DNA of 56,506 nucleotides from a virus, in the IMG/VR virus record IMGVR_UViG_3300029951_000034, one strand, 5' to 3'. Below the pieces are notes generated by a model. That model ran no database searches. It was not told the DNA's origin and worked only from the letters and a program-made list of their open reading frames with translations. Both the position numbers and the translations under genes were made by a program. Positions 1 through 56,506 of the stretch are shown here, piece by piece; positions within the stretch are counted from its first letter, which is position 1; each line of letters begins with the position of its first letter.

Positions 1-126
1 CGGATGACGGCAATCCATTCGGCAAGGGCGAGCCGGACGCTCCGGATGACGGCAATCCATTCGGCAAGGGCGAGCCGGACGCTCCGGATGACGGCAATCC
101 ATTCGGCAAGGGCGAGCCGGACGCTC
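1..126 (+). repeat. Three perfect copies of a 42-bp in-frame tandem repeat encoding PDDGNPFGKGEPDA
   Basis: The unit cggatgacggcaatccattcggcaagggcgagccggacgctc occurs three times. Nt 1-114 are identical to 56393-56506. Confidence 0.95.
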
Positions 127-605
127 CCACCGAAGAAACCGATACCTCCCCCGCCACGCCAGAGGGCGGAGACCTGACGCCAGCCGCCTACACGCCAGAC
201 GCCCAGGTGGGCGACTATCTCAGCTACCACCTGGGCGGCCCGGTCGTGATCACCGGCGGCCCTCGAACAGAAGATCGCAACGACGAAGTGGGCGGGGCCA
301 AGAACTCCGCCCACCTGAAGGGCGAGGCATGGGATTTCAAGGTTCCCGGCCAGGACAATGAGGAGACGGGCCAGAAGCTCGCCCGGTCGGGTATCCAGTT
401 CGACCAGATCGAAATCACCCCCACCCACGTCCACGTTTCGTTTGATCCCCGGATGCGCGGCGAAATCATCCACGTCGGCCGCTATGGCGAGCGACGCAAC
501 GTCACGCCGGGCTCGCCTCGCGACGATCTTCCGGATATCAGCCATATGAGCGATGACGAACTGATGGCTCTGGGGGACGCTGGCGAGCCGACCGATGGAC
601 AATGA
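1..605 (+). CDS. 3' part of a wrap-around internal virion/ejection protein. It has 14-aa tandem repeats followed by an M15/VanY-like (LAS) zinc peptidoglycan peptidase domain. The 5' part is 54397..56506.
   Basis: Frame 3 is open from nt 3 to TGA 603-605. It encodes the same PDDGNPFGKGEPDA peptide as the open-ended ORF at the window end. NSAHLKGEAWD (SxHxxGxAxD) and THVHV (HxH) are metal-ligand motifs. Confidence 0.75.
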   Translation, partial: DDGNPFGKGEPDAPDDGNPFGKGEPDAPDDGNPFGKGEPDAPTEETDTSPATPEGGDLTPAAYTPDAQVGDYLSYHLGGPVVITGGPRTEDRNDEVGGAKNSAHLKGEAWDFKVPGQDNEETGQKLARSGIQFDQIEITPTHVHVSFDPRMRGEIIHVGRYGERRNVTPGSPRDDLPDISHMSDDELMALGDAGEPTDGQ

Positions 606-14944: not shown

Positions 14945-15259
14945 TCACTGGCGGCGATCCGGCGCGCCGGCCAGCAAGACGGCCTTCCTGGCATTGGCGC
15001 GCTTGCGGGCGGCGCTCATGCGGGCGCGGACCTCGGGATCGGCCCAGGCCGCCTTGCGGGCGGCGCTCATGCGGGCGCGGACCTCGGGATCGGCCAAGGC
15101 CGCCTTGCGGGCGGCGCTCATGCGGGCGCGGACCTCGGGATCGGCCCAGGCCGCCTTGCGGGCGGCGCTCATGCGGGGTGCTGTCATGTGGCAGCGACGG
15201 CAATGGCCCGGCCCCCTGGCGGCGCAAGACGCCAAGTCGAGGCAATTTGGCCGCGTCAT
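14945..15259 (-). CDS. Cys-cluster protein with four 17-aa ARMSAARKAAWADPEVR repeats, NUMOD3-like DNA-binding repeats (104 aa)
   Basis: ATGA overlap with 15256..15510. CLDLASCAARGPGHCRRCH is followed by the repeats. A second small ORF, 14842..14994, overlaps its 3' end in another frame. Confidence 0.55.
   Translation of the reverse strand: MTRPNCLDLASCAARGPGHCRRCHMTAPRMSAARKAAWADPEVRARMSAARKAALADPEVRARMSAARKAAWADPEVRARMSAARKRANARKAVLLAGAPDRRQ
15002..15176 (-). repeat. 51-bp coding tandem repeat, about 3.4 copies
   Basis: The unit cttgcgggcggcgctcatgcgggcgcggacctcgggatcggcccaggccgc. Copies differ at one dinucleotide (cc/aa). Confidence 0.9.
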
Positions 15260-15510
15260 AGTGGATTCTCCGCGCCTTCCGGCGCGCACGCCGAGCACGC
15301 CGAGCACAGATCCTTGGCCACCCACCAGCAGGGCGGATCGCAGGCGGTGAGGTCGGTGCAGCCGCAGACGCGGCAGTGGCGCTGGTGAGCCTTCGCGGCT
15401 TCGTCCATCGCCTCGCGCGCTTTGCCGTGGGCCACGGTCGCGACACCCAGGGCGCGGCGGGCGAGGATTTCGGCGTGCATGGCGGTGCGGAGGGGGGTTG
15501 GGTCGGTCAT
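15256..15510 (-). CDS. hypothetical Cys-rich protein (84 aa)
   Basis: HCRVCGCTDLTACDPPCWWVAKDLCSACSAC cluster. ATGA overlaps at both ends. Confidence 0.6.
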   Translation of the reverse strand: MTDPTPLRTAMHAEILARRALGVATVAHGKAREAMDEAAKAHQRHCRVCGCTDLTACDPPCWWVAKDLCSACSACAPEGAENPL

Positions 15511-15722
15511 TGGCCGATGAACCGTTCAATGTCCCAAATCCAGAAACGCCGAAGCATTTCTTCGTAGGAGACAAGTTTATCGTAGCGGCCCATGTCTGCA
15601 TGCAGCAGTCGGGTTCGGACTCGATACACCCACGCGTTTCTGATCAGCATGAACTGACACCAGATCAGCCCGAGAACGCAGATGCCTACTAGTCCGAACA
15701 GGAAACATAGAATTATGTTCAT
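15507..15722 (-). CDS. small membrane protein (71 aa)
   Basis: Internal ATG. MNIILCFLFGLVGICVLGLIWCQFML TM helix. The locally low GC fits a hydrophobic coding region. Confidence 0.55.
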   Translation of the reverse strand: MNIILCFLFGLVGICVLGLIWCQFMLIRNAWVYRVRTRLLHADMGRYDKLVSYEEMLRRFWIWDIERFIGQ

Positions 15723-16813: not shown

Positions 16814-17212
16814 CTATTTGTGGTCGGCTTCCCAGCCCGCATAGAACGCCGAAGCGCAGATCTTATCGTACTCAGCCCCGGCCGCAGCGCAGATCTTATC
16901 GTACTCAGCCCCGGCCGCAGCGCAGATCTTATCGTACTCAGCCCAGGCCGCATCGCGGGCCTTGTTGTACTCAGCCCAGGCCGAAGCGCGGACCTTCTCA
17001 GCCCAGGCCGCATCGCAGACCTTCTCGTACTCAGCCCAGGCCGCAGGCGACAAGATATGTCGCGCCGCCCAGGTCCAGTCGAATTTCTGGGCGTGCTCAA
17101 GGCAGGTGGCGAGCGTGACTTCGACCGAGTTTCCGAAGGTAGCTCGGAACAACTCGACCTGGGAATTGCAAGCCCCAGCGAGCTTGAGCTGGCGCAGAGT
17201 GATTTTAGCCAT
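16814..17212 (-). CDS. hypothetical protein with 11-aa A(W/G)AEY(D/E/N)K(I/V)(C/R)xA repeats (132 aa)
   Basis: ORF whose C-terminal two-thirds is ...AWAEYEKVCDAAWAEKVRASAWAEYNKARDAAWAEYDKICAAAGAEYDKICAAAGAEYDKICASA... Confidence 0.6.
   Translation of the reverse strand: MAKITLRQLKLAGACNSQVELFRATFGNSVEVTLATCLEHAQKFDWTWAARHILSPAAWAEYEKVCDAAWAEKVRASAWAEYNKARDAAWAEYDKICAAAGAEYDKICAAAGAEYDKICASAFYAGWEADHK
16854..17046 (-). repeat. 33-bp coding tandem repeat, about 6 units; the three 3'-proximal units are almost identical
   Basis: gcgcagatcttatcgtactcagccccggccgca occurs three times, followed by degenerate units. Confidence 0.85.
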
Positions 17213-18307: not shown

Positions 18308-18621
18308 TCACCTTCGCCGACGCCCAAGAGCGCGAGCATTGCCGCCTCGATCTGCACAAGGTCCAGGAGGGGCTGTTTCCGCTGGCCGCGTGGTTCGAAC
18401 GGTATTCCGAGCGGCTGGCCGCGCTGTTGCTGGAGCCGCTGGCCGATGAGGAAGACAACAGCGAATTGCATGATGATTTGGAGCGAGCGGAGGCCGACGC
18501 AACCAAGGCCGAAGAACTTGCAGAGGCGCGCTCCAAAGCCATCAACGATGCGTGTGCCCTTCTCGAAAACGATCCGCCGCTCGTGGCCGACGCCTTGACC
18601 GTTCTGGAAAACCCCGAATGA
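18304..18621 (+). CDS. highly acidic hypothetical protein (105 aa)
   Basis: ATGA overlap with the upstream gene. Hand count gives 27 D/E against 9 K/R. Confidence 0.55.
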   Translation: MITFADAQEREHCRLDLHKVQEGLFPLAAWFERYSERLAALLLEPLADEEDNSELHDDLERAEADATKAEELAEARSKAINDACALLENDPPLVADALTVLENPE

Positions 18622-19703
18622 AGTTCTCAATTGAACGCAACGTCCTCATCGGCGCCCTGGCCCATGTCACCGGCGTCGTCGCCCGCAAGAACACCATCCC
18701 GATTCTAAGTTGCGTCCTGATCGACGCGGCTCCGGGCCAACTCACCATCCGCGCAACCAATCTGGACATGGAAGCCACCGTGCGCGTTGACGCCACGGTG
18801 AGTGAGGTCGGTTCATGCTGCGTCGCCGGCTCCATGCTGGCCGATATCGCCAAGAATGCAGCGGAGGGTGCGGATATCGCACTCGACCTCGGCAAGCGCC
18901 TGGCGATCAAGACGGGGCGGTCGCGGTTCAATCTGGCTGTCCAACCGACATCGGATTTCCCATCGTTCCCGGCTGTCGAGGGCGGCGCATCGTTCACATG
19001 GCGAGCGCGGGAGATCGGTGCGGTCATCAATCGGGTGGCCTTCGCGCAAGGGGCCGATGTCGGCAAAGCCTATCTGTGCGGCGTGCGGCTGTTCGGGACG
19101 GCCGGACTGCTGGGCGTCGCGGCCACGAACGGCAAACATATCGCCATCTTCGATACGCTTGTTGCGGCGCCCGATTTCGCCATCACCGTACCAACCGCCA
19201 TGGTCAACGAGCTGAAGCGCATGCTGGATACCGATGGCGACGCGACAGTGAGCGTTTCGCCAACCAAGCTGGGCGTCATGGTCGATGGCGTCGAGATCAT
19301 CGGCAAGTTGGTCGATGGCAATTTTGCCGATTTCCGTGGTGTCGTGGCGCGCACGAAGCACGACGCGACTGCCACGTTGGCGCGCGAGGAACTGGCCGGC
19401 GCGTTGCGGCGCGTCATGCTGGCGGCGACCGACCAGGAAACCACGGCGCGACTGGCGCTCGAGACCGGCGCGATTGTCGTTACCGCCAAGGGCCAGGATG
19501 CGGACGCCGAGGATAGCGTGGCGTGCGATTACGATGGCGAGCCGATCATGTTCGGGGTCAATGCGGCGCAAGTGCTACAGGCGCTCGCAGCGATTGAGGG
19601 CGATGACGTGGAAATCCGCACCGGGCCGCATCCCAATCCGTTCCGGCTTTCGGCGCCTGGGGATGATCGGTTCATGGTGCTCAATGCGGTGTTCAGGGCG
19701 TGA
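18618..19703 (+). CDS. dnaN: DNA polymerase III beta sliding clamp
   Basis: ATGA overlap with the upstream gene. MKFSIERNVLIGALAHVTGVVARKNTIPILSCVLIDA...LTIRATNLDME... is the typical DnaN N-terminus. At 361 aa it has the length of a three-domain clamp. Confidence 0.85.
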   Translation: MKFSIERNVLIGALAHVTGVVARKNTIPILSCVLIDAAPGQLTIRATNLDMEATVRVDATVSEVGSCCVAGSMLADIAKNAAEGADIALDLGKRLAIKTGRSRFNLAVQPTSDFPSFPAVEGGASFTWRAREIGAVINRVAFAQGADVGKAYLCGVRLFGTAGLLGVAATNGKHIAIFDTLVAAPDFAITVPTAMVNELKRMLDTDGDATVSVSPTKLGVMVDGVEIIGKLVDGNFADFRGVVARTKHDATATLAREELAGALRRVMLAATDQETTARLALETGAIVVTAKGQDADAEDSVACDYDGEPIMFGVNAAQVLQALAAIEGDDVEIRTGPHPNPFRLSAPGDDRFMVLNAVFRA

Positions 19704-22026: not shown

Positions 22027-22193
22027 TCCGCTTCAACGGCACTATCATCAGCACCGACGAAGGCTTGCCCGATCCGACGTGGCCGACCGATGTTGAATTG
22101 AGATATTTATGGCTCTACGGCGATGTCGAGGAGCGCCGCAAAATCAATGCGGCCGACGAAGCCAAATGGCGCAATCTGGGGAGGCCGAAATGA
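22023..22193 (+). CDS. hypothetical protein (56 aa)
   Basis: Below the ORF-track cutoff. ATGA overlaps at both ends. Confidence 0.4.
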   Translation: MIRFNGTIISTDEGLPDPTWPTDVELRYLWLYGDVEERRKINAADEAKWRNLGRPK

Positions 22194-22840
22194 GCGCTGC
22201 CGACAATGCCCGATTCTGGACGCCCGAGCGCCAGACCCGCTTAGCCGAACTTGCCGCGATAGGATGGTCTGCCGCTCAGATCGGGGCTGACATCCAGGCC
22301 AGTCGGTCAGCCGTCATCGGGCGTGCATCGCGGACCGGTGTGCGCCTAGTCGGCAATTGCGGACATCGGCCACATACGACCCCGAAATTCTGGACACCGC
22401 GCGTCACCGCCGAAGCGCGCGAACTGTGGCTGTCCGGCATGACCACGCATCGGATCGCCAAGCTGATCGGCGCCACAAGTCACCACGCCGTCGCCAACAA
22501 GGCCAGGAGCGCCAAGTGGGGCAAGCATCCATCCGTCGTGGCGCGAGAGGCCGCAGCTGCCGCCAGGCGCGACGGGAAGCGGCCGGAACCGATGGTGTTC
22601 ACCCCGACCGAATGCGCGCCGACTGATGGCGTGGCATTTGACGACCTGGCGCGGGATGGGTGTCGGTATGCGCTCAATCAGCCGGCGGCGCATGACATCG
22701 GGAGCATGAGATTTTGCGGAGAACATGGCTATCCATATTGTCCGGACCACGCAGCGCTTTGCTATGACATGCCAATGCGCCGCGCCGGGATCAAAGAGCG
22801 CGCACGATTGGCGCTTCAGGTCGTGGAGATGTTCCCATGA
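22190..22840 (+). CDS. gcrA: GcrA-like cell-cycle transcription regulator
   Basis: GGGGAGG RBS. WTPERQTRLAELAAIGWSAAQIGADIQASRSAVIGRASRTGV, a second similar HTH-like unit, and the C-terminal C...FCG...PYCPDH motif typical of GcrA. Confidence 0.75.
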   Translation: MSAADNARFWTPERQTRLAELAAIGWSAAQIGADIQASRSAVIGRASRTGVRLVGNCGHRPHTTPKFWTPRVTAEARELWLSGMTTHRIAKLIGATSHHAVANKARSAKWGKHPSVVAREAAAAARRDGKRPEPMVFTPTECAPTDGVAFDDLARDGCRYALNQPAAHDIGSMRFCGEHGYPYCPDHAALCYDMPMRRAGIKERARLALQVVEMFP

Positions 22841-23528: not shown

Positions 23529-24137
23529 TCATGACCTCGGAATGGGACAAGAACAGTGCGGGCAATATCGCACTTCAGGCGCTGGTGAATTATGAGGCGC
23601 TTGACTTCTATGGAATCGCTGTAGGTCTTCGACTCGAAATATCGCCCGGACCCGATCCGGATGGGCCTCGTATATTCGTACAACTTTCAATGGATGTAGA
23701 TCGCGCTCAAGACCTCGCGAATTTGCTTCAGATGGTAGTGGACCATATCCAAGCCCAGAAACCCCAAGCTCCGACGAACTAGACATGGCGGCGCGCACCT
23801 CGCGTAGATTGGTGGTGGCATGACGAGGAGAACGATCTACTTGATAAGCGGCGAGCAGAACGGCCCGCACGGCTTCATCTTCTCCTCCCACAGGAAAAGC
23901 CACATCCATCGGGCAAAGCTCCGAAAGCGCCAAAACGGCCGCCTCAACCATAGCGGAAGTAATCTCAATCACCGTCCTGTCACGCAGCTTAACCATAGCC
24001 CTAGTCCTTACTATGTCAAAGGGATAATTCCCCAATGTTGCTGTCGGGTGTCGCCTTTCCCAGGCAGACGCTTTAGCCGCCAAGGGCTCACTTGCCTCCA
24101 GCAGGCGCGTGATGATGGCGGTGGCGGAATCGGTCAT
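23529..24137 (-). CDS. hypothetical protein; the first ~100 codons look credible, while the 3' half may be read-through into antisense of 23531..23782
   Basis: The ORF is 202 aa. The N-terminal part (MTDSATAIITRLLEASEPLAAKASAWERRH...) looks native and the C-terminal part looks unnatural (..HNSPAPEVRYCPHCSCPIPRS). Confidence 0.4.
   Translation of the reverse strand: MTDSATAIITRLLEASEPLAAKASAWERRHPTATLGNYPFDIVRTRAMVKLRDRTVIEITSAMVEAAVLALSELCPMDVAFPVGGEDEAVRAVLLAAYQVDRSPRHATTNLREVRAAMSSSSELGVSGLGYGPLPSEANSRGLERDLHPLKVVRIYEAHPDRVRAIFRVEDLQRFHRSQAPHNSPAPEVRYCPHCSCPIPRS
23531..23782 (+). CDS. hypothetical protein (83 aa) in a lower-GC patch
   Basis: AAGGGGA RBS 7 nt upstream. Protein-like amphipathic sequence. 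It is fully overlapped on the opposite strand by the 3' half of ORF 23529..24137. Confidence 0.5.
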   Translation: MTSEWDKNSAGNIALQALVNYEALDFYGIAVGLRLEISPGPDPDGPRIFVQLSMDVDRAQDLANLLQMVVDHIQAQKPQAPTN

Positions 24138-24235: not shown

Positions 24236-24547
24236 TTATTCGTTGGCCTTCACGCGCGGCGCCCAGACCGTGAACCGGCCGCTCGCCAGCGTCTCCAAGA
24301 GAACGACTTCATTCGATCCCTGCATCATCACCTTGGCGATCGTGCCGCCCTGCTTGAGCTTTTGCGTCCAGACACGCATGGCGTCGGGGTCTTCCAGGCG
24401 CAGGGTCTCGATGCCGGTGAGCGGCGTGCCGGCGACTGGCTCGGTGGTCGATGGCGCTTCAATCGCGGCCTTGATCGCGGCCAGGGGGTCGGGCTTGTCG
24501 TCTTCCTTGATGGCTTCCTTAATCTGGTCGGCGAATTTGGCGGTCAT
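24236..24547 (-). CDS. hypothetical protein (103 aa)
   Basis: ORF with high GC3, downstream of 24567..25919 in the same operon. Confidence 0.55.
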   Translation of the reverse strand: MTAKFADQIKEAIKEDDKPDPLAAIKAAIEAPSTTEPVAGTPLTGIETLRLEDPDAMRVWTQKLKQGGTIAKVMMQGSNEVVLLETLASGRFTVWAPRVKANE

Positions 24548-24566: not shown

Positions 24567-25919
24567 TTAGGTTTCTAGGGCTTCGGCGAGATCGCGTCCG
24601 AACGTCCATGCGCGGGCCTTGGCGGCGTCGGTGATCGTCGGAGGTACGCGCAGCGGCACGACCTTGGCCGAACTTGTGCACACGACCGTGAGGATTGCCA
24701 ATGGCTCGTCATCGACCAGTTCGGCGCGATAGAGATCACAGGTCACGGGCCGATTGCCATACATGCCGCGCCAGATAGCCATGGCGCTCGACTGCATTTT
24801 GTGCGTGATATCCTCCCGCGAAATTGGCTTCAGGTTTCCGGCCTGAATCCATGAACTGAGCGCCAGGGTGTGGTTGTCGGGGTCATAGAGCCCGTTAAAA
24901 CGTTCCAGCATATGGCGACGGATTTCAGCGTTGGGCTCGTCGCGTACCTGCTCGAACGTAAGTGTTTCCGGCGTCTCGATGACTTGGCGCGGAACCGGAA
25001 GGCCATGGATATGCCAGAGCGAATAGCCGTCACGGTAACTGATGGATGGTTTGTCCGGCGAATGCAGGCGGTTCTGCTCGTCGAAATGCATATGGGCCGG
25101 ACGGTCCGTCAGAATGCAAAAGTCATTGAACGGATACCACCAGCCGATGTTTCGGCAGATCGTGATATGGTCGTCCAGCGCGTCATTTAGCGTAGAGGGA
25201 TAAACAGCTCCGACGCGACGCCCCCCATCCAGCCACATCCAATAGTAATCCCAGGCGCCCCAAAACCACGTCCCCATATAGGACAGTTTTTGGCCCCTGA
25301 GCTGGCCCCAGAGCTGGACCCTGAGCTGGTCCCCGAGCTGGCCCCCGAGCTGGACCCCGAGCTGGCCCCAGAGTTGGCCCCCGAGCTGGCCCCCGAGCTG
25401 GACCCCGAGCTGGTCCCAGAGTTGGTCCCAGAGCTGGCCCCAGAGCTGGCCCCTGAGCTGGCCCCAGAGTTGGCCCCCGAGCTGGCCCCCGAGCTGGCCC
25501 CCGAGCTGGTCCCCGAGCTGGCCCCCGAGCTGGACCCCGAGCTGGTCCCAGAGTTGGTCCCAGAGCTGGTCCCCGAGCTGGCCCCTGAGCTGGCCCCCGA
25601 GTTGGCCCCCGAGCTGGTCCCAGAGTTGGCCCCTGAGCTGGCCCCAGAGCTGGTCCCCGAGCTGGCCCCTGAGCTGGCCCCTCTTAGTGGAATCGGGCCA
25701 AGTCTTGGTCAGCAGGTTAATATAGAGTTCGGCGGCGAAGGGCGACGACAGGTGGACGAAATGGGGCCGCTTTTTTCCGATACTCTCATAGAGGCGCGTT
25801 ACAGCCGCTTCCGCGCTCTCAAAATCGGCCGGCGCGCAAGAGGTTCCGGTCTCAAGCCATTCCTTGAGGGAGGCGTCGATGATCTGACGACGTGCAGGTG
25901 TCAAGGATAACTTGGTCAT
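24567..25919 (-). CDS. 450-aa accessory protein with about 32 tandem [G/D/V]-Q-L-[G/W/R] tetrapeptides between an N-terminal domain and a Trp-rich C-terminal domain
   Basis: Continuous ORF. The C-terminal signature is ...RLHSPDKPSISYRDGYSLWHIHGLPVP...NAEIRRHMLERF... I associate this with an uncharacterised bacterial family, possibly DUF6745, but could not verify it. Confidence 0.7.
   Translation of the reverse strand: MTKLSLTPARRQIIDASLKEWLETGTSCAPADFESAEAAVTRLYESIGKKRPHFVHLSSPFAAELYINLLTKTWPDSTKRGQLRGQLGDQLWGQLRGQLWDQLGGQLGGQLRGQLGDQLWDQLWDQLGVQLGGQLGDQLGGQLGGQLGGQLWGQLRGQLWGQLWDQLWDQLGVQLGGQLGGQLWGQLGVQLGGQLGDQLRVQLWGQLRGQKLSYMGTWFWGAWDYYWMWLDGGRRVGAVYPSTLNDALDDHITICRNIGWWYPFNDFCILTDRPAHMHFDEQNRLHSPDKPSISYRDGYSLWHIHGLPVPRQVIETPETLTFEQVRDEPNAEIRRHMLERFNGLYDPDNHTLALSSWIQAGNLKPISREDITHKMQSSAMAIWRGMYGNRPVTCDLYRAELVDDEPLAILTVVCTSSAKVVPLRVPPTITDAAKARAWTFGRDLAEALET
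25291..25682 (-). repeat. 12-bp coding microsatellite, about 32.7 units
   Basis: The plus strand reads (GAGCTGGNCCCN)n. Variation is essentially restricted to two positions per unit. Confidence 0.95.
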
Positions 25920-25921
25920 GA

Positions 25922-26278
25922 CTAATCGACCACGCGGCGGACAATGCCGGGCGCGGAATATTCGCGCTGACGGGTGATTTTATAAACACCCGGCGCGAGA
26001 TCGACGGGGTGGTGATCAGCCATGGCCCCGGACGAATATTCGTGGGTCAGGACCACGCCAGCGCCTCCGACTTCGATGTAGTCCACGTCTTCCGAGCCGG
26101 CCAGGCTGAAGCCGCAGACGTTCTTGGCGCGGAGAGCGTGGCTGTGATCGTGCGATTCGCCGCGCGCGAGCACGATCCGGCCGATGTCGTCGCGCTTGGC
26201 TTCGGTGAGACCGGCGGGCAGCGCATCGATACGCTCGATGAGGATATCGCCTTGGCGGGCGAGTTTGATGGAAGTCAT
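25922..26278 (-). CDS. hypothetical protein (118 aa)
   Basis: ARQGDILIERI...LARGESHDHSHAL pattern seen in small conserved phage proteins of unknown function. ATGA overlap with the upstream gene. Confidence 0.55.
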   Translation of the reverse strand: MTSIKLARQGDILIERIDALPAGLTEAKRDDIGRIVLARGESHDHSHALRAKNVCGFSLAGSEDVDYIEVGGAGVVLTHEYSSGAMADHHPVDLAPGVYKITRQREYSAPGIVRRVVD

Positions 26279-54396: not shown

Positions 54397-56506
54397 ATGC
54401 CTGACGGCAATCCATTCGGCCAACCATCGCCCCCCGCCGCGCCACCGCCACAGGGCGATATCCTGCCTGTCCAGTGGTGGAAGGATTTCGGCGAGCGTCA
54501 GAAAGACGCGGCTGGCCGGATCGAGCAGGATATGCAACCCCGCTCGCCGCTTCAGACCGTCCAGGACGCGGCGGGAGGCCCGTTTAGCCCCCATGCCCTG
54601 AAGACCGGCGGCGACGTGTTCGACTACGCCATGTCGCCCCTCCAGGGGGCGTTTGACACGATGATCGGGCGTCCGGTAGAGCAACTATCCGGCGGTCGGA
54701 TCAAGAAGAAGACGGCCGGCGATGTTGCCTCGTTCGTTGTCCCGTTTGGCGGCGAAGTGGCGGCCGAACGCGCCATGGCGAACGCGGCGCGGAAGATTGG
54801 CGTGACCGTCGAGCAGTTCAAAACCATGCTGAAGGCCCGCGAGGCCGCCTGGGCTGCCAACAAAGGAGAATTGGCTAGACGAACGGCGACCCAGGAGCGC
54901 ATAGGCGCCAAGCCGAGCCTGACCGTGGGAACCACCAGCCCCGCGCTCCGGACCATAGCCTCACACCTCGGTGGCACAGCTCTCGCCGGTTATGGCCCTC
55001 GCGCGGCGGTGAAGCGAACCGGCGAGGCGATTGAAAAGACCGGAGCGGAGACGGCGGCGAAGATCGGCCAAGTCGGAACCGATAAGTCTATTGGCGACAC
55101 CATCCGCGCTGGGATCAAGCGTTTTTCGCAAAGCAACCCGGACGGCGCTCCGGTCAGGGAAAATCTGGACCCTGGCACTACCGCCGCCCTGGAGTCGGCG
55201 GCACGGTCCACGAAATCCAACATCATCGGCTTTGGCAACAAGGCCAATGTGTTGATGGAGCGCGCCGATCGCCTGGTGGGCAATCCGACCTCCTTGATCA
55301 AGGCCGATAACACGGCGGCGGCGCTCAATGACCACATGGCCCTGTTTGACAATCCGTCGTTGAGCCAGATGCACCGTAACCCGATCCTGGAGAGATATCA
55401 GGGCATCCTCGCCAAATCTCAGGGCAAGCTATCCTGGCAGGACGCTCGTCAGCTCCGCACCCGCATCAGGATGATGATGACGACACCGGAACTCCGCATC
55501 GGCATAGACGAAGCGGAGCTGAAGCGCATCTATGGCGCGCTCAGTGAAGACCTTCAGGGTGGGGCCTATGCCTTGGGGAAGAAGGCCGGCGGCGACGCCT
55601 ATAGGGAGGCCAACAAGTTCTATTACGCTGGCCAGAAGCGGATCGAGAACACGCTGAACGACGTTTTCAACACTCAGAGCAGCGAAAAAATCTTCGCCGA
55701 CCTGTACGCTAACGCCAGTTCAGGCGTGGCCGGGAAGGGAAATCTGGAGAAGTTGACGCAGGTCAAGCGCTCCCTGACGCCCAGCGAATGGCGCGACTTT
55801 TCAGCCTCGGTCCTCAGCCAGATGGGGGTAACGACACCTGGAAAGCGCGGCGAGCAGGTCTTTTCGCCGGAAACCTTCTTTACCAATTTTGAGAATATGA
55901 GTCAGCGTGTCGGGGGGCGCGAAGATAGCGCGGTCGATAGCGGTCTGAAGCTTCTGTTCGAGGGCGAAGGCAAGGAGGGCACGTTCTCTGCCATCCAGGA
56001 CATGGCGGAAAATTCCGGTTTCCTGCGAGAACTTCGCAAGCTCTACAACCACTCTCAATCCGGCTATACGGCGGCCGACATGGGCATGTTGGGGGGCATG
56101 ATGGCGGTGGGGGCGGAGGGCGGGGTTGGGCACGACCTTTTCCTGAAGATTCCAGCCATCGCGATGACCTTGGCCGGCAACTTCGCCCTCGAAAACGCTT
56201 CGTTCGTCAAATGGCTCGCGAAGGTGAGTAGCGGCACGGGGCCAAAGACCACCGACGCGATCATGGACAGCCTGGGCCAACTCGCCAAGACCAACGCCGC
56301 CGTGACCCCTATCTACCACGCCGTGGGCGCCGCTATTCATCCTCACGGCCAGGATGTGAGCTTGCCAGCCGATCACAAAGAGCCGGACGCTCCGGATGAC
56401 GGCAATCCATTCGGCAAGGGCGAGCCGGACGCTCCGGATGACGGCAATCCATTCGGCAAGGGCGAGCCGGACGCTCCGGATGACGGCAATCCATTCGGCA
56501 AGGGCG
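54397..56506 (+). CDS. 5' part of the wrap-around internal virion/ejection protein (no stop inside the window; continues at nt 1)
   Basis: The ATG lies 2 nt after the upstream stop and the frame is open to the window end. The N-terminus MPDGNPFG repeats the DGNPFG motif of the C-terminal tandem repeats. Confidence 0.7.
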   Translation, partial: MPDGNPFGQPSPPAAPPPQGDILPVQWWKDFGERQKDAAGRIEQDMQPRSPLQTVQDAAGGPFSPHALKTGGDVFDYAMSPLQGAFDTMIGRPVEQLSGGRIKKKTAGDVASFVVPFGGEVAAERAMANAARKIGVTVEQFKTMLKAREAAWAANKGELARRTATQERIGAKPSLTVGTTSPALRTIASHLGGTALAGYGPRAAVKRTGEAIEKTGAETAAKIGQVGTDKSIGDTIRAGIKRFSQSNPDGAPVRENLDPGTTAALESAARSTKSNIIGFGNKANVLMERADRLVGNPTSLIKADNTAAALNDHMALFDNPSLSQMHRNPILERYQGILAKSQGKLSWQDARQLRTRIRMMMTTPELRIGIDEAELKRIYGALSEDLQGGAYALGKKAGGDAYREANKFYYAGQKRIENTLNDVFNTQSSEKIFADLYANASSGVAGKGNLEKLTQVKRSLTPSEWRDFSASVLSQMGVTTPGKRGEQVFSPETFFTNFENMSQRVGGREDSAVDSGLKLLFEGEGKEGTFSAIQDMAENSGFLRELRKLYNHSQSGYTAADMGMLGGMMAVGAEGGVGHDLFLKIPAIAMTLAGNFALENASFVKWLAKVSSGTGPKTTDAIMDSLGQLAKTNAAVTPIYHAVGAAIHPHGQDVSLPADHKEPDAPDDGNPFGKGEPDAPDDGNPFGKGEPDAPDDGNPFGKG
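56381..56506 (+). repeat. 42-bp tandem repeat array at the window end (12 + 42 + 42 + 30 nt)
   Basis: Same unit as 1..126. 56393-56506 is identical to 1-114. Confidence 0.95.

Follow-up and report, generated by a model that had tools for sequence, protein, structure and literature searches.

A 12-nucleotide coding repeat array in a phage DUF6745 gene that is paired with a conserved partner in replication and recombination neighbourhoods

The window, a 56,506-nucleotide stretch of viral DNA, contains a gene whose two globular parts are separated by 32 tandem 12-nucleotide units, raising the question of what kind of protein carries such an array, how the array changes and what purpose, if any, it serves. 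The first part of the answer is a family assignment. The protein matches PF20530 (DUF6745) at E=5.6e-33 with 114.4 bits, against a curated gathering cut-off of 27 bits, so that the family which the preliminary description had suggested is the right one. The best stretch pairs aa 242–341 with profile positions 23–122 of 206, in a model which spans only the C-terminal core, without the N-terminal subdomain or the array. All 538 homologues of the 450-aa protein belong to PF20530, and the C-terminal domain is matched by 6,963 clusters (50% identity). No named homologue is present among the sets of 538 and 2,094 matches, NCBIfam gives no matches, and a Pfam search for a fused informative domain in ten long DUF6745 proteins (600–960 aa) returned DUF6745 alone. 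The literature searched for DUF6745, PF20530 and the repeat strings describes no function, partner or repeat for the family.

The flanks of the array, 80 aa on the N-terminal side and a Trp-rich 242 aa on the C-terminal side with RLHSPDKPSISYRDGYSLWHIHGLPVP and NAEIRRHMLERF, are as they had first been described (Table 1). Residues conserved across the family in the N-terminal subdomain include Y44, P52, S59 and P60. The C-terminal part carries the DUF6745 core motifs GWWYPF..DRP..RLH..GP..Y.DG..HG..VP and NAE.RR, with P274, D280, H286, D297, G298, G306, N330, E332 and R334 invariant or nearly so, and the protein ends in ...ET; the last residue is Thr or Ser in 224 of 257 family members. In two family alignments the motifs GWWYPF..DRP, RLH..GPA..Y.DG, HG..VP and N.E.RR are all represented in the window protein, as are the (near-)invariant G, Y, P, D, R, P, H, Y, R, D, G, G and N/E/R positions.

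Table 1. Positions in the window of the DUF6745 gene, its parts, its internal repeats and the partner gene
Feature	Position	Strand	Description	Basis
DUF6745-family gene	24567..25919	-	450 aa, ATG start; coordinates include the stop	ORF list, Pfam
N-terminal subdomain	25680..25919	-	aa 1–80; three helices and one strand	AF2, family conservation
Array	25296..25679	-	aa 81–208; 32 units of 12 nt, GNC-CAR-CTC-NGG = [G/D/V]QL[G/W/R]	Parsing, Tandem Repeats Finder
C-terminal globular part	24570..25295	-	aa 209–450; DUF6745 core	Pfam, AF2, alignment
Internal direct repeat, copy 1	25379..25437	.	59 nt, longest exact internal repeat; bounds the 11-unit indel relative to L001
Internal direct repeat, copy 2	25511..25569	.	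59 nt; lag of 132 nt = 11 units
Partner gene	25922..26278	-	118 aa, all-beta; stop 2 nt before the DUF6745 start	phrog_27831

Tandem Repeats Finder delimits the array as 25291..25681 (period 12, 32.6 copies, 87% matches, 0% indels), whilst direct parsing gives 32 complete units in perfect register followed by a partial GQK. The array of xQLx tetrapeptides reported earlier, encoded on the minus strand by GNC-CAG/A-CTC-NGG, is thereby confirmed. Within the unit, nine of 12 positions never vary; Leu is CTC throughout and the fourth codon invariably NGG. Position 2 (G19/A9/T4) yields Gly, Asp or Val and position 10 (G16/T10/A6) yields Gly, Trp or Arg, and position 6 (G26/A6) alternates between the synonymous CAG and CAA. 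The statement that the units vary at only two positions therefore stands for the sites which change amino acids, but not for the synonymous third, which the same description had itself mentioned. A degenerate two-unit pattern occurs 31 times in the window, always within the array, where shuffles predict 0.01 occurrences, and no second copy of the array or related noncoding repeat is present elsewhere in the 56.5 kb. The array has a GC content of 0.74 and is 27% Gly. Judged by its unit of 12 nt, a multiple of three, repeated 32 times without indels, it is an in-frame coding VNTR. A role as a structured RNA was rejected, because the RNA folds worse than 100 of 100 shuffles (z=+3.5).

The array is a trait of the family. 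In homologues the same place in the linker is taken by 2 to 47 units, with a median of 20 (range 1–43) in the 120 closest clusters, 93 of which have at least 10; in array-less relatives a non-repetitive linker of 20–35 aa joins the N-terminal subdomain to the C-terminal core. The claim that (D/G)Q(V/L)(W/R/G) runs occur in the family is borne out among the homologues, which also have variant units (xQVx, xSLx, xNLx, xAVx and xNIx) whose third residue is hydrophobic throughout. The same protein-level pattern is encoded by different DNA units, among them CAGGTC, TCGCTT, CAGTTG and TCGCAGGTG. In most arrays (about 20 loci) entropy is zero at 10 of the 12 nucleotide positions, including every synonymous site, and amounts to 1.4–1.6 bits at the first base of NGG and 0.7–1.0 bits at the middle base of GNC. 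The sites which remain polymorphic are thus those which change amino acids, codon 4 specifying W/R/G and codon 1 D/G/A/V. Over 2,304 units the fourth residue is Gly in 33%, Arg in 30% and Trp in 26%, Trp making up 6–8% of array residues, and at this position identical neighbours are rarer than expected (WW z=-4.8, RR z=-4.4, GG z=-3.0; lag-1 z=-6.0). No signal was obtained for coupling within units between Asp and Arg (i to i+3).

How such a pattern is generated is indicated by the choice of Arg codon, which is single in almost every array (AGG:CGG ratios of 23:0, 20:0, 17:0 and 14:0, or 0:12 and 0:11). Since almost every array draws upon one codon, the alleles are copied and not regenerated: unit types are propagated by copying or duplication, and are not created by recurrent mutation or hypermutation. 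Arrays evolve by multi-unit duplications and deletions bounded by repeats, and all synonymous sites within an array are therefore homogenised. A diversity-generating retroelement (DGR) or other dedicated mutator rewriting the two variable positions could explain why variation is restricted to set codon positions, and the alleles with an A, GAC and AGG, could pass for template adenines. This explanation is hardly credible, however, as the window holds no template copy of the array, the CAG adenine is unvarying in 32 of 32 units, near-identical pairs of arrays differ by one substitution each and the single Arg codon argues against it; the array was accordingly rejected as a DGR target. No reverse transcriptase is found among the 20 window ORFs scanned with Pfam or PHROGs.

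Apparent multi-unit indels separate close relatives. The window and the contig L001 have 32 and 21 units respectively; an indel of 11 units and a single substitution, which falls at unit position 2, set their arrays apart, and 969 nucleotides of coding flank contain no mismatch. A second pair, L058 and L059, has 30 and 16 units, a 14-unit indel, again one substitution at unit position 2, and no mismatch in 990 flanking nucleotides. All four contigs were assembled from short metagenomic reads, and each indel falls between, and coincides with, the longest internal exact repeats, so that assembly collapse may account for these two differences. L001, L058 and L059 derive from ENA ERZ27248687, ERZ27309396 and ERZ27309394 respectively. 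Apart from L001, scans of metagenomes and genomes contain no relative closer than 65%, and megablast against GenBank phages found no relative. Between the prophages of Brevundimonas olei and B. faecalis, the flanks of which are 88% identical, the number of uninterrupted units changes from 30 to 47 and their order is scrambled. It is thus certain that copy number varies among more distant isolates. The comparison of repeat number among relatives which the preliminary description proposed reveals differing copy numbers, and its expectation that slippage steps stay in frame agrees with every length change observed.

Those contigs raise the matter of whether the array, or its length, arose when short reads from a low-complexity region were assembled. 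The window and most of its relatives are metagenomic contigs, and the ends of the window contig themselves sit in an unresolved 42-bp tandem repeat. Furthermore, the short alleles of L001 and L059 equal the long ones minus the loop between the longest internal repeats, which is exactly what graph collapse would yield. As a general account of the array, an artefact is nonetheless exceedingly improbable. The same architecture recurs in hundreds of independent assemblies and in isolate genomes, including a complete chromosome (Saxibacter CP090958.1); the longest exact internal repeat in the window array, at 59 nt, is shorter than typical reads; and the reading frame is intact and the flanks conserved.

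The DUF6745 gene belongs with a second gene in a conserved module. In 43 of 50 distinct loci its direct neighbour, in the same orientation, encodes a partner of about 115 aa; reciprocal look-ups agree, and the window ORF matches the partner profile at E=1.1e-46. The partner is an all-beta protein with a His/Glu motif and an invariant C-terminal Asp, found in 124 of 124 sequences; its motifs run QGD / GE.tGH.H / H.EH / PG.Y / RQREY / ..V.D-COOH, E41, H47 and H89 are likewise invariant, the window partner ends in ...RRVVD, and a Pfam search with 23 partner sequences returned only noise. The downstream ORF at 24236..24547 was considered as partner and rejected, being unrelated by alignment; the homologue is the upstream ORF. 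The preliminary description makes no mention of this conserved gene directly upstream. Because array-less homologues retain the partner gene, the core function appears to be independent of the repeats, which, on the terms of the preliminary description, counts against a repeat-centred function.

The module lies among replication and recombination genes, an association which consists of gene neighbourhoods and one transcriptome, that of an array-less homologue. In the window, clamp, helicase and primase genes surround the minus-strand block (23.5–29.1 kb) of which the DUF6745 gene is the largest ORF, and the prophage regions of homologues carry RusA, ERF, YqaJ, NinB, helicase and primase genes. 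In Ma-LMM01, gp174 (DUF6745) and gp175 (partner) sit between the UDG and DNA polymerase genes and are transcribed with them in subclass B5, placing the pair in the middle (replication) class, whereas the early host-takeover genes are gp054–gp063 (PMC5780444). Hence, of the description of the gene as the largest of an early accessory operon, the size holds within its block whilst the early timing is not supported. A scan for operon promoters and terminators gave counts equal to chance.

An early timing had been part of the case for a host-takeover or anti-defence factor. Extended to the pair, this reading would have the DUF6745 protein and its partner neutralise host immunity or hijack a host protein, the Trp, Arg and Asp surface of the array recording an arms race. 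Several features are compatible with this. The pair occurs in accessory regions rich in small ORFs without assigned function and in the early operons of temperate phages, sometimes close to methyltransferase or Lar-like restriction-alleviation genes; the family is patchy yet very widespread; the array turns over very fast and two radical amino-acid positions are kept polymorphic. Against these stand the absence of PADLOC-DB matches for the DUF6745 protein, the partner and eight operon neighbours, the middle-class transcription of the Ma-LMM01 pair, and the fact that the array, the supposed arms-race surface, is missing from many members which keep the pair. Nor is the rate of point substitution in the array clearly raised (1 in 252 nt). 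With no match to a PADLOC-DB system and a neighbourhood of replication and recombination, the candidacy is not supported and seems unlikely.

The same neighbourhood allows the array to be read as DNA, its 12-bp repeats acting in cis as iterons, a centromere or recombination hotspots within a coding linker, with the peptide as a by-product. The invariance of synonymous sites within arrays would suit such a role, as would the recurrence across phyla of CTC, AGG, GGG and GNC codons contrary to flank codon usage, and the lambda origin inside gene O provides a precedent. Features of this kind of origin-in-gene are lacking at the locus: the cumulative GC skew has no turning point near 25 kb and array-less homologues are common. 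The protein pattern, with its hydrophobic third residue and W/R/G fourth, is moreover kept across different DNA units, the variable sites are amino-acid-changing instead of silent, and the GC-rich array has no related noncoding repeat in the window. A cis-acting element is very unlikely on these grounds.

What the protein looks like can be described with unequal confidence along its length. AF2 gives pLDDT values of 90–98 for aa 1–70 and 86–98 for the C-terminal part, and models the partner with pLDDT 85 and pTM 0.79. The array is predicted, at low confidence (pLDDT 50–69), as two long helices (80–139 and 150–208), so that the solenoid first suggested gives way to a low-confidence two-helix hairpin. 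Neither model matches a fold in the PDB (best E=6 for DUF6745 and E=0.33 for the partner), searches of BFVD with the DUF6745 model return other DUF6745 proteins only (E=1.8e-13), and sequence and profile searches of the PDB reveal no relatives of either protein. One PDB match, 23fj_R, a eukaryotic ARID protein with a GQMP low-complexity tract, was judged compositional and not homologous.

Taken together, the reading which fits best, albeit tentatively, is that the array forms a fast-evolving, probably helical and dispensable arm on a replication-associated accessory complex. Topology and pTM suggest that the segments on either side of the array pack into a single globular body, in which case the array has to project from this body and come back to it; the simplest shape for this would be an alpha-helical hairpin or arm that can be extended. 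A constant seam would be made up of Leu, at every fourth residue, and Gln, whilst Trp, Arg, Gly and Asp at the two variable positions would give the surface a mixed character, a mixture presumably kept by selection since homogenisation would otherwise erase it. The arm may then bind nucleic acid, or a host or phage protein, through many contacts of low specificity, modulating the activity of the DUF6745–partner core during phage DNA replication or recombination without being required for it. Its length and surface pattern would change fast because the DNA is recombinogenic. Several observations sit uneasily with a helical hairpin: the low pLDDT, the Gly content of the window array, a period of four residues against the 3.6 of a helix, and the failure of the two halves of the array to complement each other when set antiparallel (W facing G, R facing D), a pairing for which no signal emerged at five registers.

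An alternative to a selected arm is that the array is a self-propagating coding microsatellite, tolerated in a permissive surface linker of GC-rich phages, whose length and pattern have no function and on which selection acts merely to keep it harmless (soluble and non-aggregating). The array is present in 25 of 28 loci with a GC content of at least 0.58 and in none of eight below 0.5, Ma-LMM01 gp174 and other low-GC members being without it, a distribution which fits a mutational origin. The conserved core and partner of array-less homologues, the huge length range and the missing hairpin complementarity point the same way. Composition also drifts, to 23 R, 6 W and 1 G in Maricaulis and to 12 G, 3 R and no W in Henriciella, so that the mixture is not universal, and the depletion of identical neighbours could reflect preferential loss of perfect 24-nt duplicates instead of selection on the protein. 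Conversely, about 26% of fourth positions are still Trp across phyla, despite the rarity and cost of this residue, a hydrophobic residue recurs every fourth position even where the DNA units differ, identical neighbours are depleted, and the same two sites stay polymorphic whilst everything around them is homogenised, a polymorphism which drift alone should not preserve. Functionless expansion is, on balance, somewhat unlikely.

A bolder version of the arm reading, and a distinctly doubtful one, would see in the pair a two-protein machine, not described before, that belongs to the replication and recombination modules of tailed phages, with the VNTR as an enzyme-free generator of diversity. 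Such a machine would be spread over thousands of sequence clusters in phages of Alphaproteobacteria, Actinobacteria and Cyanobacteria; the DUF6745 body would either employ or modify the flexible tail of the partner, which ends in the invariant Asp, and recombination would shuffle arm length together with a surface code of three letters (W/R/G) by two (D/G). If true, a phage could quickly adjust how it engages a host factor through multivalent contacts, for example in escaping or decoying a defence sensor. Whichever reading holds, the DNA pattern is unusually clean, silent sites being homogenised and two amino-acid-changing sites polymorphic in dozens of arrays from different phyla. The array may thus offer a natural example of concerted evolution combined with selection for heterogeneity within an array, a small alphabet of units being reused everywhere. 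The function of DUF6745 must be a common one, since the family comprises 6,963 clusters and is carried by temperate as well as lytic phages in their replication and recombination modules, and a two-gene module without characterised relatives or PDB folds, despite confident AF2 models, is a target for new phage biochemistry. The array itself provides an experimental handle, as in-frame changes to its length or its W/R/G content leave the conserved domains untouched.

A number of parallels can be drawn with known systems. DGR target proteins likewise limit amino-acid diversity to certain codon positions of an otherwise constant sequence. In the array, by contrast, it is the units within a single gene that differ from each other, and not the alleles of a single site, and unit variants are spread by duplication, with one adenine invariant and no template repeat. 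Pentapeptide-repeat proteins such as Qnr and MfpA form beta-helices from A(D/N)LXX units, which are degenerate at the DNA level, and some act on DNA enzymes. Like the array, they are built of tandem peptide units only a few residues long, in which one Leu is fixed and its neighbours vary; they differ in their period of five instead of four, in fold (the array is predicted to be helical) and in lacking its near-identical DNA units; the Pfam pentapeptide models do not match the protein, DUF6745 being its sole Pfam match.

Proteins of the SMC/Rad50 type combine a globular head with an antiparallel arm. The proposed topology would be similar, N- and C-terminal segments sharing one globular body with a long out-and-back segment between them, and the setting is again DNA metabolism. 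The DUF6745 protein, however, has no ATPase motifs, no homology and no fold match, and its arm varies more than 20-fold in length and is sometimes absent. In lambda, the four origin iterons of about 19 bp lie in the linker-coding part of gene O, a second case of direct DNA repeats encoding an inter-domain linker in a replication-region gene. There the likeness ends, since the array consists of 32 GC-rich units of 12 bp with no clear AT-rich element adjacent and no skew signal, and encodes a protein pattern kept across different DNA units.

Domain II of E. coli tolA provides a cellular example of in-frame intragenic repeats in a long, predicted helical spacer of a protein which is not a surface antigen; according to the abstract of the tolA study, strains differ in their number of copies, and the biological consequences of these differences are examined (PMC3477136). 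The tolA units are longer and less uniform, and that abstract describes no two-site polymorphism, phage context or recurrence in a family across phyla (PMC3477136). Finally, Ma-LMM01 gp174, whilst differing from the window protein in having no array, shares with it a homologous C-terminal core and the same adjoining partner, gp175.

The protein encoded by the repeat-bearing gene belongs to the Pfam family DUF6745 (PF20530; E=5.6e-33), as the preliminary description had correctly suggested. Its match in PHROGs is to a family of unknown function, and searches of NCBIfam and PADLOC returned no match. All of the homologues found by a word-indexed search carry PF20530 (538/538), and an exhaustive phmmer search with the C-terminal 240 aa as query yielded 6,963 clusters (50% identity), 3,046 of them at E<=1e-10. 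A literature search for DUF6745, PF20530 and the repeat strings found no mention of them. The central array of about 32 tetrapeptides proposed for this ORF is borne out by the ORF itself, by Tandem Repeats Finder (25291..25681: period 12, 32.6 copies, 87% matches, 0 indels) and by in-frame parsing; the flanking sequences and motifs quoted with it were also found. Nine of the 12 nucleotide positions are constant across the 32 units. Position 2 (G19/A9/T4) specifies Gly, Asp or Val, position 10 (G16/T10/A6) specifies Gly, Trp or Arg, and position 6 (G26/A6) is a silent alternation of CAG and CAA. A degenerate two-unit pattern matches the window 31 times, always within the array, against 0.01 expected, and the GC content of the array is 0.74 compared with 0.62 for the window. 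The antisense ORF of PEL[A/D/V] repeats is probably no gene, and is expected because the array unit lacks a stop codon in that frame.

Coordinates of the features discussed (window positions unless another locus is named)
Feature	Position	Strand	Remarks
DUF6745 gene	24567..25919	minus	450 aa, ATG start
Array, 32 complete in-frame units GNC-CAR-CTC-NGG, aa 81-208	25296..25679	minus	in-frame parsing
Partner gene, 118 aa	25922..26278	minus	directly upstream of DUF6745 gene; stop 2 nt before its start
QL-type arrays sharing codons	25296..25679		also in related loci L002, L003, L012, L024, L039, L040, L041, L044, L058
Antisense ORF, 206 aa	25290..25910	plus	runs through array
ORFs for 243-aa protein and sliding-clamp homologue (phrog_947, E=5e-71)	22109..22840 and 18552..19703	plus	
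Indel of ~31 nt relative to L001	about 23806..23838		downstream of ORF 24236..24547
42-bp tandem repeat	1..127 and 56380..56506		perfect, 3 copies at each contig end
51-bp tandem repeat	15002..15177		3.5 copies, 98% identical; in ORF 14945..15601 (minus)
33-bp tandem repeat	16848..17046 (nested rows to 17073)		6.2 copies, 82% identical, indels
Degenerate-tract ORF of L022 (IMGVR_UViG_3300014201_000010)	L022 6933..8513		GC 0.32
Partner fragment of L058	L058 2118..2264		upstream of DUF6745 gene

Among the 120 closest clusters the arrays have a median of 20 units (range 1-43), with at least 10 units in 93, and the largest among isolate and viral loci has 47. At least four units are present in 35 of 137 more distant representatives, where variants (xQVx, xSLx, xSVx, xNLx, xAVx, xQIx, xNIx, xATx) always retain a hydrophobic third residue and mostly W, R or G as the fourth. 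Homogeneous arrays were found at 25 of 28 loci with a GC content >=0.58 and at 0 of 8 below 0.5 (Spearman 0.59, p=4e-5, without phylogenetic correction). In L022, a low-GC viral locus, a degenerate period-4 tract of ~50 units (xxHV/xxQV/xxNV) replaces the homogeneous array, and may be what an old array looks like once homogenisation has ended. Array-less members carry a non-repetitive linker of 20-35 aa at the equivalent position. The array is thus an expansion between a conserved N-terminal subdomain and the DUF6745 core, and the function of the core cannot depend on it.

Nucleotide entropy per unit position, calculated for arrays of ~20 loci from alphaproteobacterial phages and actinobacterial prophages, is zero at 10 of 12 positions, including all third codon positions. 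Variation is confined to the first base of NGG (1.4-1.6 bits) and to the middle base of GNC/GNT (0.7-1.0 bits). This two-site variation is common to different unit sequences (CAGCTC, CAGGTC, CAGTTG, TCGCTT, TCGCAGGTG), and is more scattered in the arrays of three related loci (L013, L025, L036). Such focused variability might be attributed to targeted hypermutation, but this is barely credible: Arg within one array is encoded almost exclusively by a single codon, usually AGG (with counts such as 23:0, 20:0, 17:0 and 14:0) but CGG in some arrays (12:0, 11:0), so that unit alleles must be copied and not regenerated, which excludes hypermutation. A DGR was ruled out, there being no template copy of the array in the window and the CAG adenine being invariant.

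The window and its near-identical relative L001 have no mismatches in the CDS flanks (0/969); their differences are an indel of 11 units and a single substitution, which is at unit position 2. A second near-identical pair, L058 and L059, differs by a 14-unit indel and one substitution, again at unit position 2, with 0/990 flank mismatches. In each pair the indel falls precisely between the copies of the longest exact repeat within the longer allele (59 nt with a lag of 132; 71 nt with a lag of 168), as is predicted by repeat-mediated deletion and equally by de Bruijn graph collapse. Since all four are short-read contigs, copy-number variation between near-identical genomes is likely rather than proven. 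At greater distance array variation is certain: comparison of repeat number among relatives, as the preliminary description had proposed, gives 30 and 47 units in unrelated order for the Brevundimonas olei and B. faecalis prophages, the flanks of which are 88% identical. Graph collapse could account for the indels between near-identical contigs; that the array as such is an assembly artefact is extremely improbable. Elsewhere in the otherwise 99%-identical L001, an indel of ~31 nt is also seen.

Residue usage was tabulated over 105 arrays (2,304 units). Position 4 is G in 33%, R in 30% and W in 26%, and position 1 is D in 47%, G in 39% and A in 6%. At position 4, neighbouring units share a residue less often than expected (WW z=-4.8, RR z=-4.4, GG z=-3.0; lag-1 z=-6.0), and the succession W-R is commoner than expected (z=+4.1); simple one-unit slippage would produce the opposite neighbour pattern. 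The arrays evolve concertedly, by multi-unit duplication and deletion. The two heterogeneous sites could be maintained by protein-level selection for a mixture of W/R/G and D/G, or by a bias towards losing adjacent duplicates that are perfect. The mixture has exceptions, one Maricaulis array being R-rich and one Henriciella array G-rich. QL-type arrays of different phyla share the same atypical codons (Leu CTC, Arg AGG, Gly GGG), with CTC used for 270/270 Leu against 45% in the flanks, and AGG for 83% of Arg against 8%. The flanking domains of these loci, in alphaproteobacterial and actinobacterial elements, are just 35-60% identical in protein. Array exchange between phages, DNA-level constraint and slow silent change are possible causes. 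A DNA-level constraint would accord with a cis-acting DNA element, a reading that is nevertheless very unlikely. The array RNA folds worse than 100/100 shuffles (z=+3.5), so that self-complementarity is avoided.

In the AF2 model of the DUF6745 protein (116 sequences; mean pLDDT 81.5, pTM 0.67), pLDDT mostly exceeds 90 across aa 1-70 and 230-440 (86-98 per 10-residue block), and the array is drawn as a pair of long helices (80-139, 150-208) with pLDDT 50-69. Foldseek found no match to the model in the PDB (best E=6) and only DUF6745 proteins in BFVD, headed by that of Microcystis phage Ma-LMM01, and profile searches of PDB sequences were empty. A phmmer match between the array and an ARID protein was judged not to reflect homology, the region matched being a eukaryotic GQMP low-complexity tract. 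The C-terminal residue of DUF6745 proteins is Thr or Ser in 224/257 sequences (...ET, ...RT, ...ES).

A second protein family accompanies DUF6745. The partner gene adjoins the DUF6745 gene on the same strand at 43 of 50 distinct loci (20 upstream, 23 downstream), counting L058, where only a remnant survives; it lies within 2.4 kb at one further locus, and of the six loci that deviate several are found at the edge of a contig. At L058 the partner is seemingly reduced to a fragment beside a truncated methyltransferase ORF, and the module there may have decayed. Reciprocal look-up from partner homologues (Ruegeria and two JGI contigs) again led to adjacent DUF6745 genes, one of which has no Pfam annotation yet carries a long DQLR/W/G array. 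The partner family has >2,000 members, none of them named, and a Pfam search found no model. AF2 predicts an all-beta fold (pLDDT 85, pTM 0.79; last ~8 residues low), for which fold and sequence searches of the PDB gave no match. Invariant residues include Q9, G10, P21, H47, H89, G97 and D118, with E41 near-invariant, and the motifs GE.tGH.H and H.EH are recognisable. Every one of 124 sequences ends in Asp, mostly as ...RRVAD; invariant C-terminal residues on both proteins of a pair are unusual.

The window is a phage genome, encoding a primase/helicase, large terminase subunit, virion proteins, helicase, sliding-clamp homologue and methyltransferase, with no close relative found among GenBank phages. 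Both genes of the pair belong to a block on the minus strand (~29144 to 23529) that holds a Cas4-like nuclease and otherwise mostly unknown ORFs, with the helicase/clamp/methyltransferase genes on one side and the primase gene on the other. In bacterial genomes it is located in prophages, amid RusA, ERF, YqaJ, NinB, helicase, primase and cI/cro-like genes. The 243-aa protein weakly matches a D5-like transcriptional regulator PHROG and by eye resembles alphaproteobacterial GcrA-type regulators; together with the clamp homologue it suggests a host of Caulobacterales type, in agreement with the closest DUF6745 homologues, which are from Phenylobacterium and Brevundimonas. In the lytic cyanophage Ma-LMM01, gp175 is the partner and gp174 an array-less DUF6745 protein, encoded between the uracil-DNA glycosylase and DNA polymerase genes. 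RNA-seq places gp174 and gp175 with these two genes in middle subclass B5, the early host-takeover genes being gp054-gp063 (PMC5780444). An anti-defence or host-takeover factor, as the preliminary description had envisaged from an early operon, is unlikely.

The evidence establishes membership of DUF6745, the placing of the array in a linker and the way it evolves, as well as the partner and the neighbourhood. It is tentatively proposed, with a little under even confidence, that the array is an arm modulating a DUF6745–partner activity in phage DNA replication or recombination by means of a multivalent, low-specificity surface. As the flanks are each confidently folded and a short linker joins them in array-less relatives, the simplest arrangement would be an arm that leaves the globular flanks and returns, in the AF2 model as a helical hairpin of ~60 residues per side. 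Antiparallel complementarity between the array halves was looked for and none was found, so the hairpin derives from AF2 and topology. The seam, made of Leu and Gln, would be constant, with the two polymorphic positions exposed on the surface. Dispensability of the array is compatible with a functionless, tolerated expansion, which is somewhat unlikely, and suggests modulation rather than constitution of the activity; the multivalent surface is suggested by the fact that Trp and Arg persist. The tie of the proposed activity to replication or recombination would come from the neighbourhood and one transcriptome.

Other repeats are present in the window. The contig ends share a 42-bp repeat and overlap by 114 nt, so that the genome is self-closing or terminally redundant via a tandem array of which the assembly does not fix the true copy number. 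In the 51-bp repeat a 17-aa unit, RMSAARKAAWADPEVRA, is encoded three times, which makes it a second in-frame repeat of the genome. The 33-bp repeat is open in frame on either strand, with units LSTIRSALRPG or SADLIVLSPGR, and may be coding.

The array phenomenon is real, clean, widespread and open to experiment, part of the copy-number evidence coming from short-read assemblies. No prior description was found of the family-wide two-site-polymorphic tetrapeptide array, of the conserved partner, or of the absence of fold relatives for both proteins. The gene itself adds a member to a known, uncharacterised family, and in-frame coding repeats and concerted evolution are phenomena of kinds already known.
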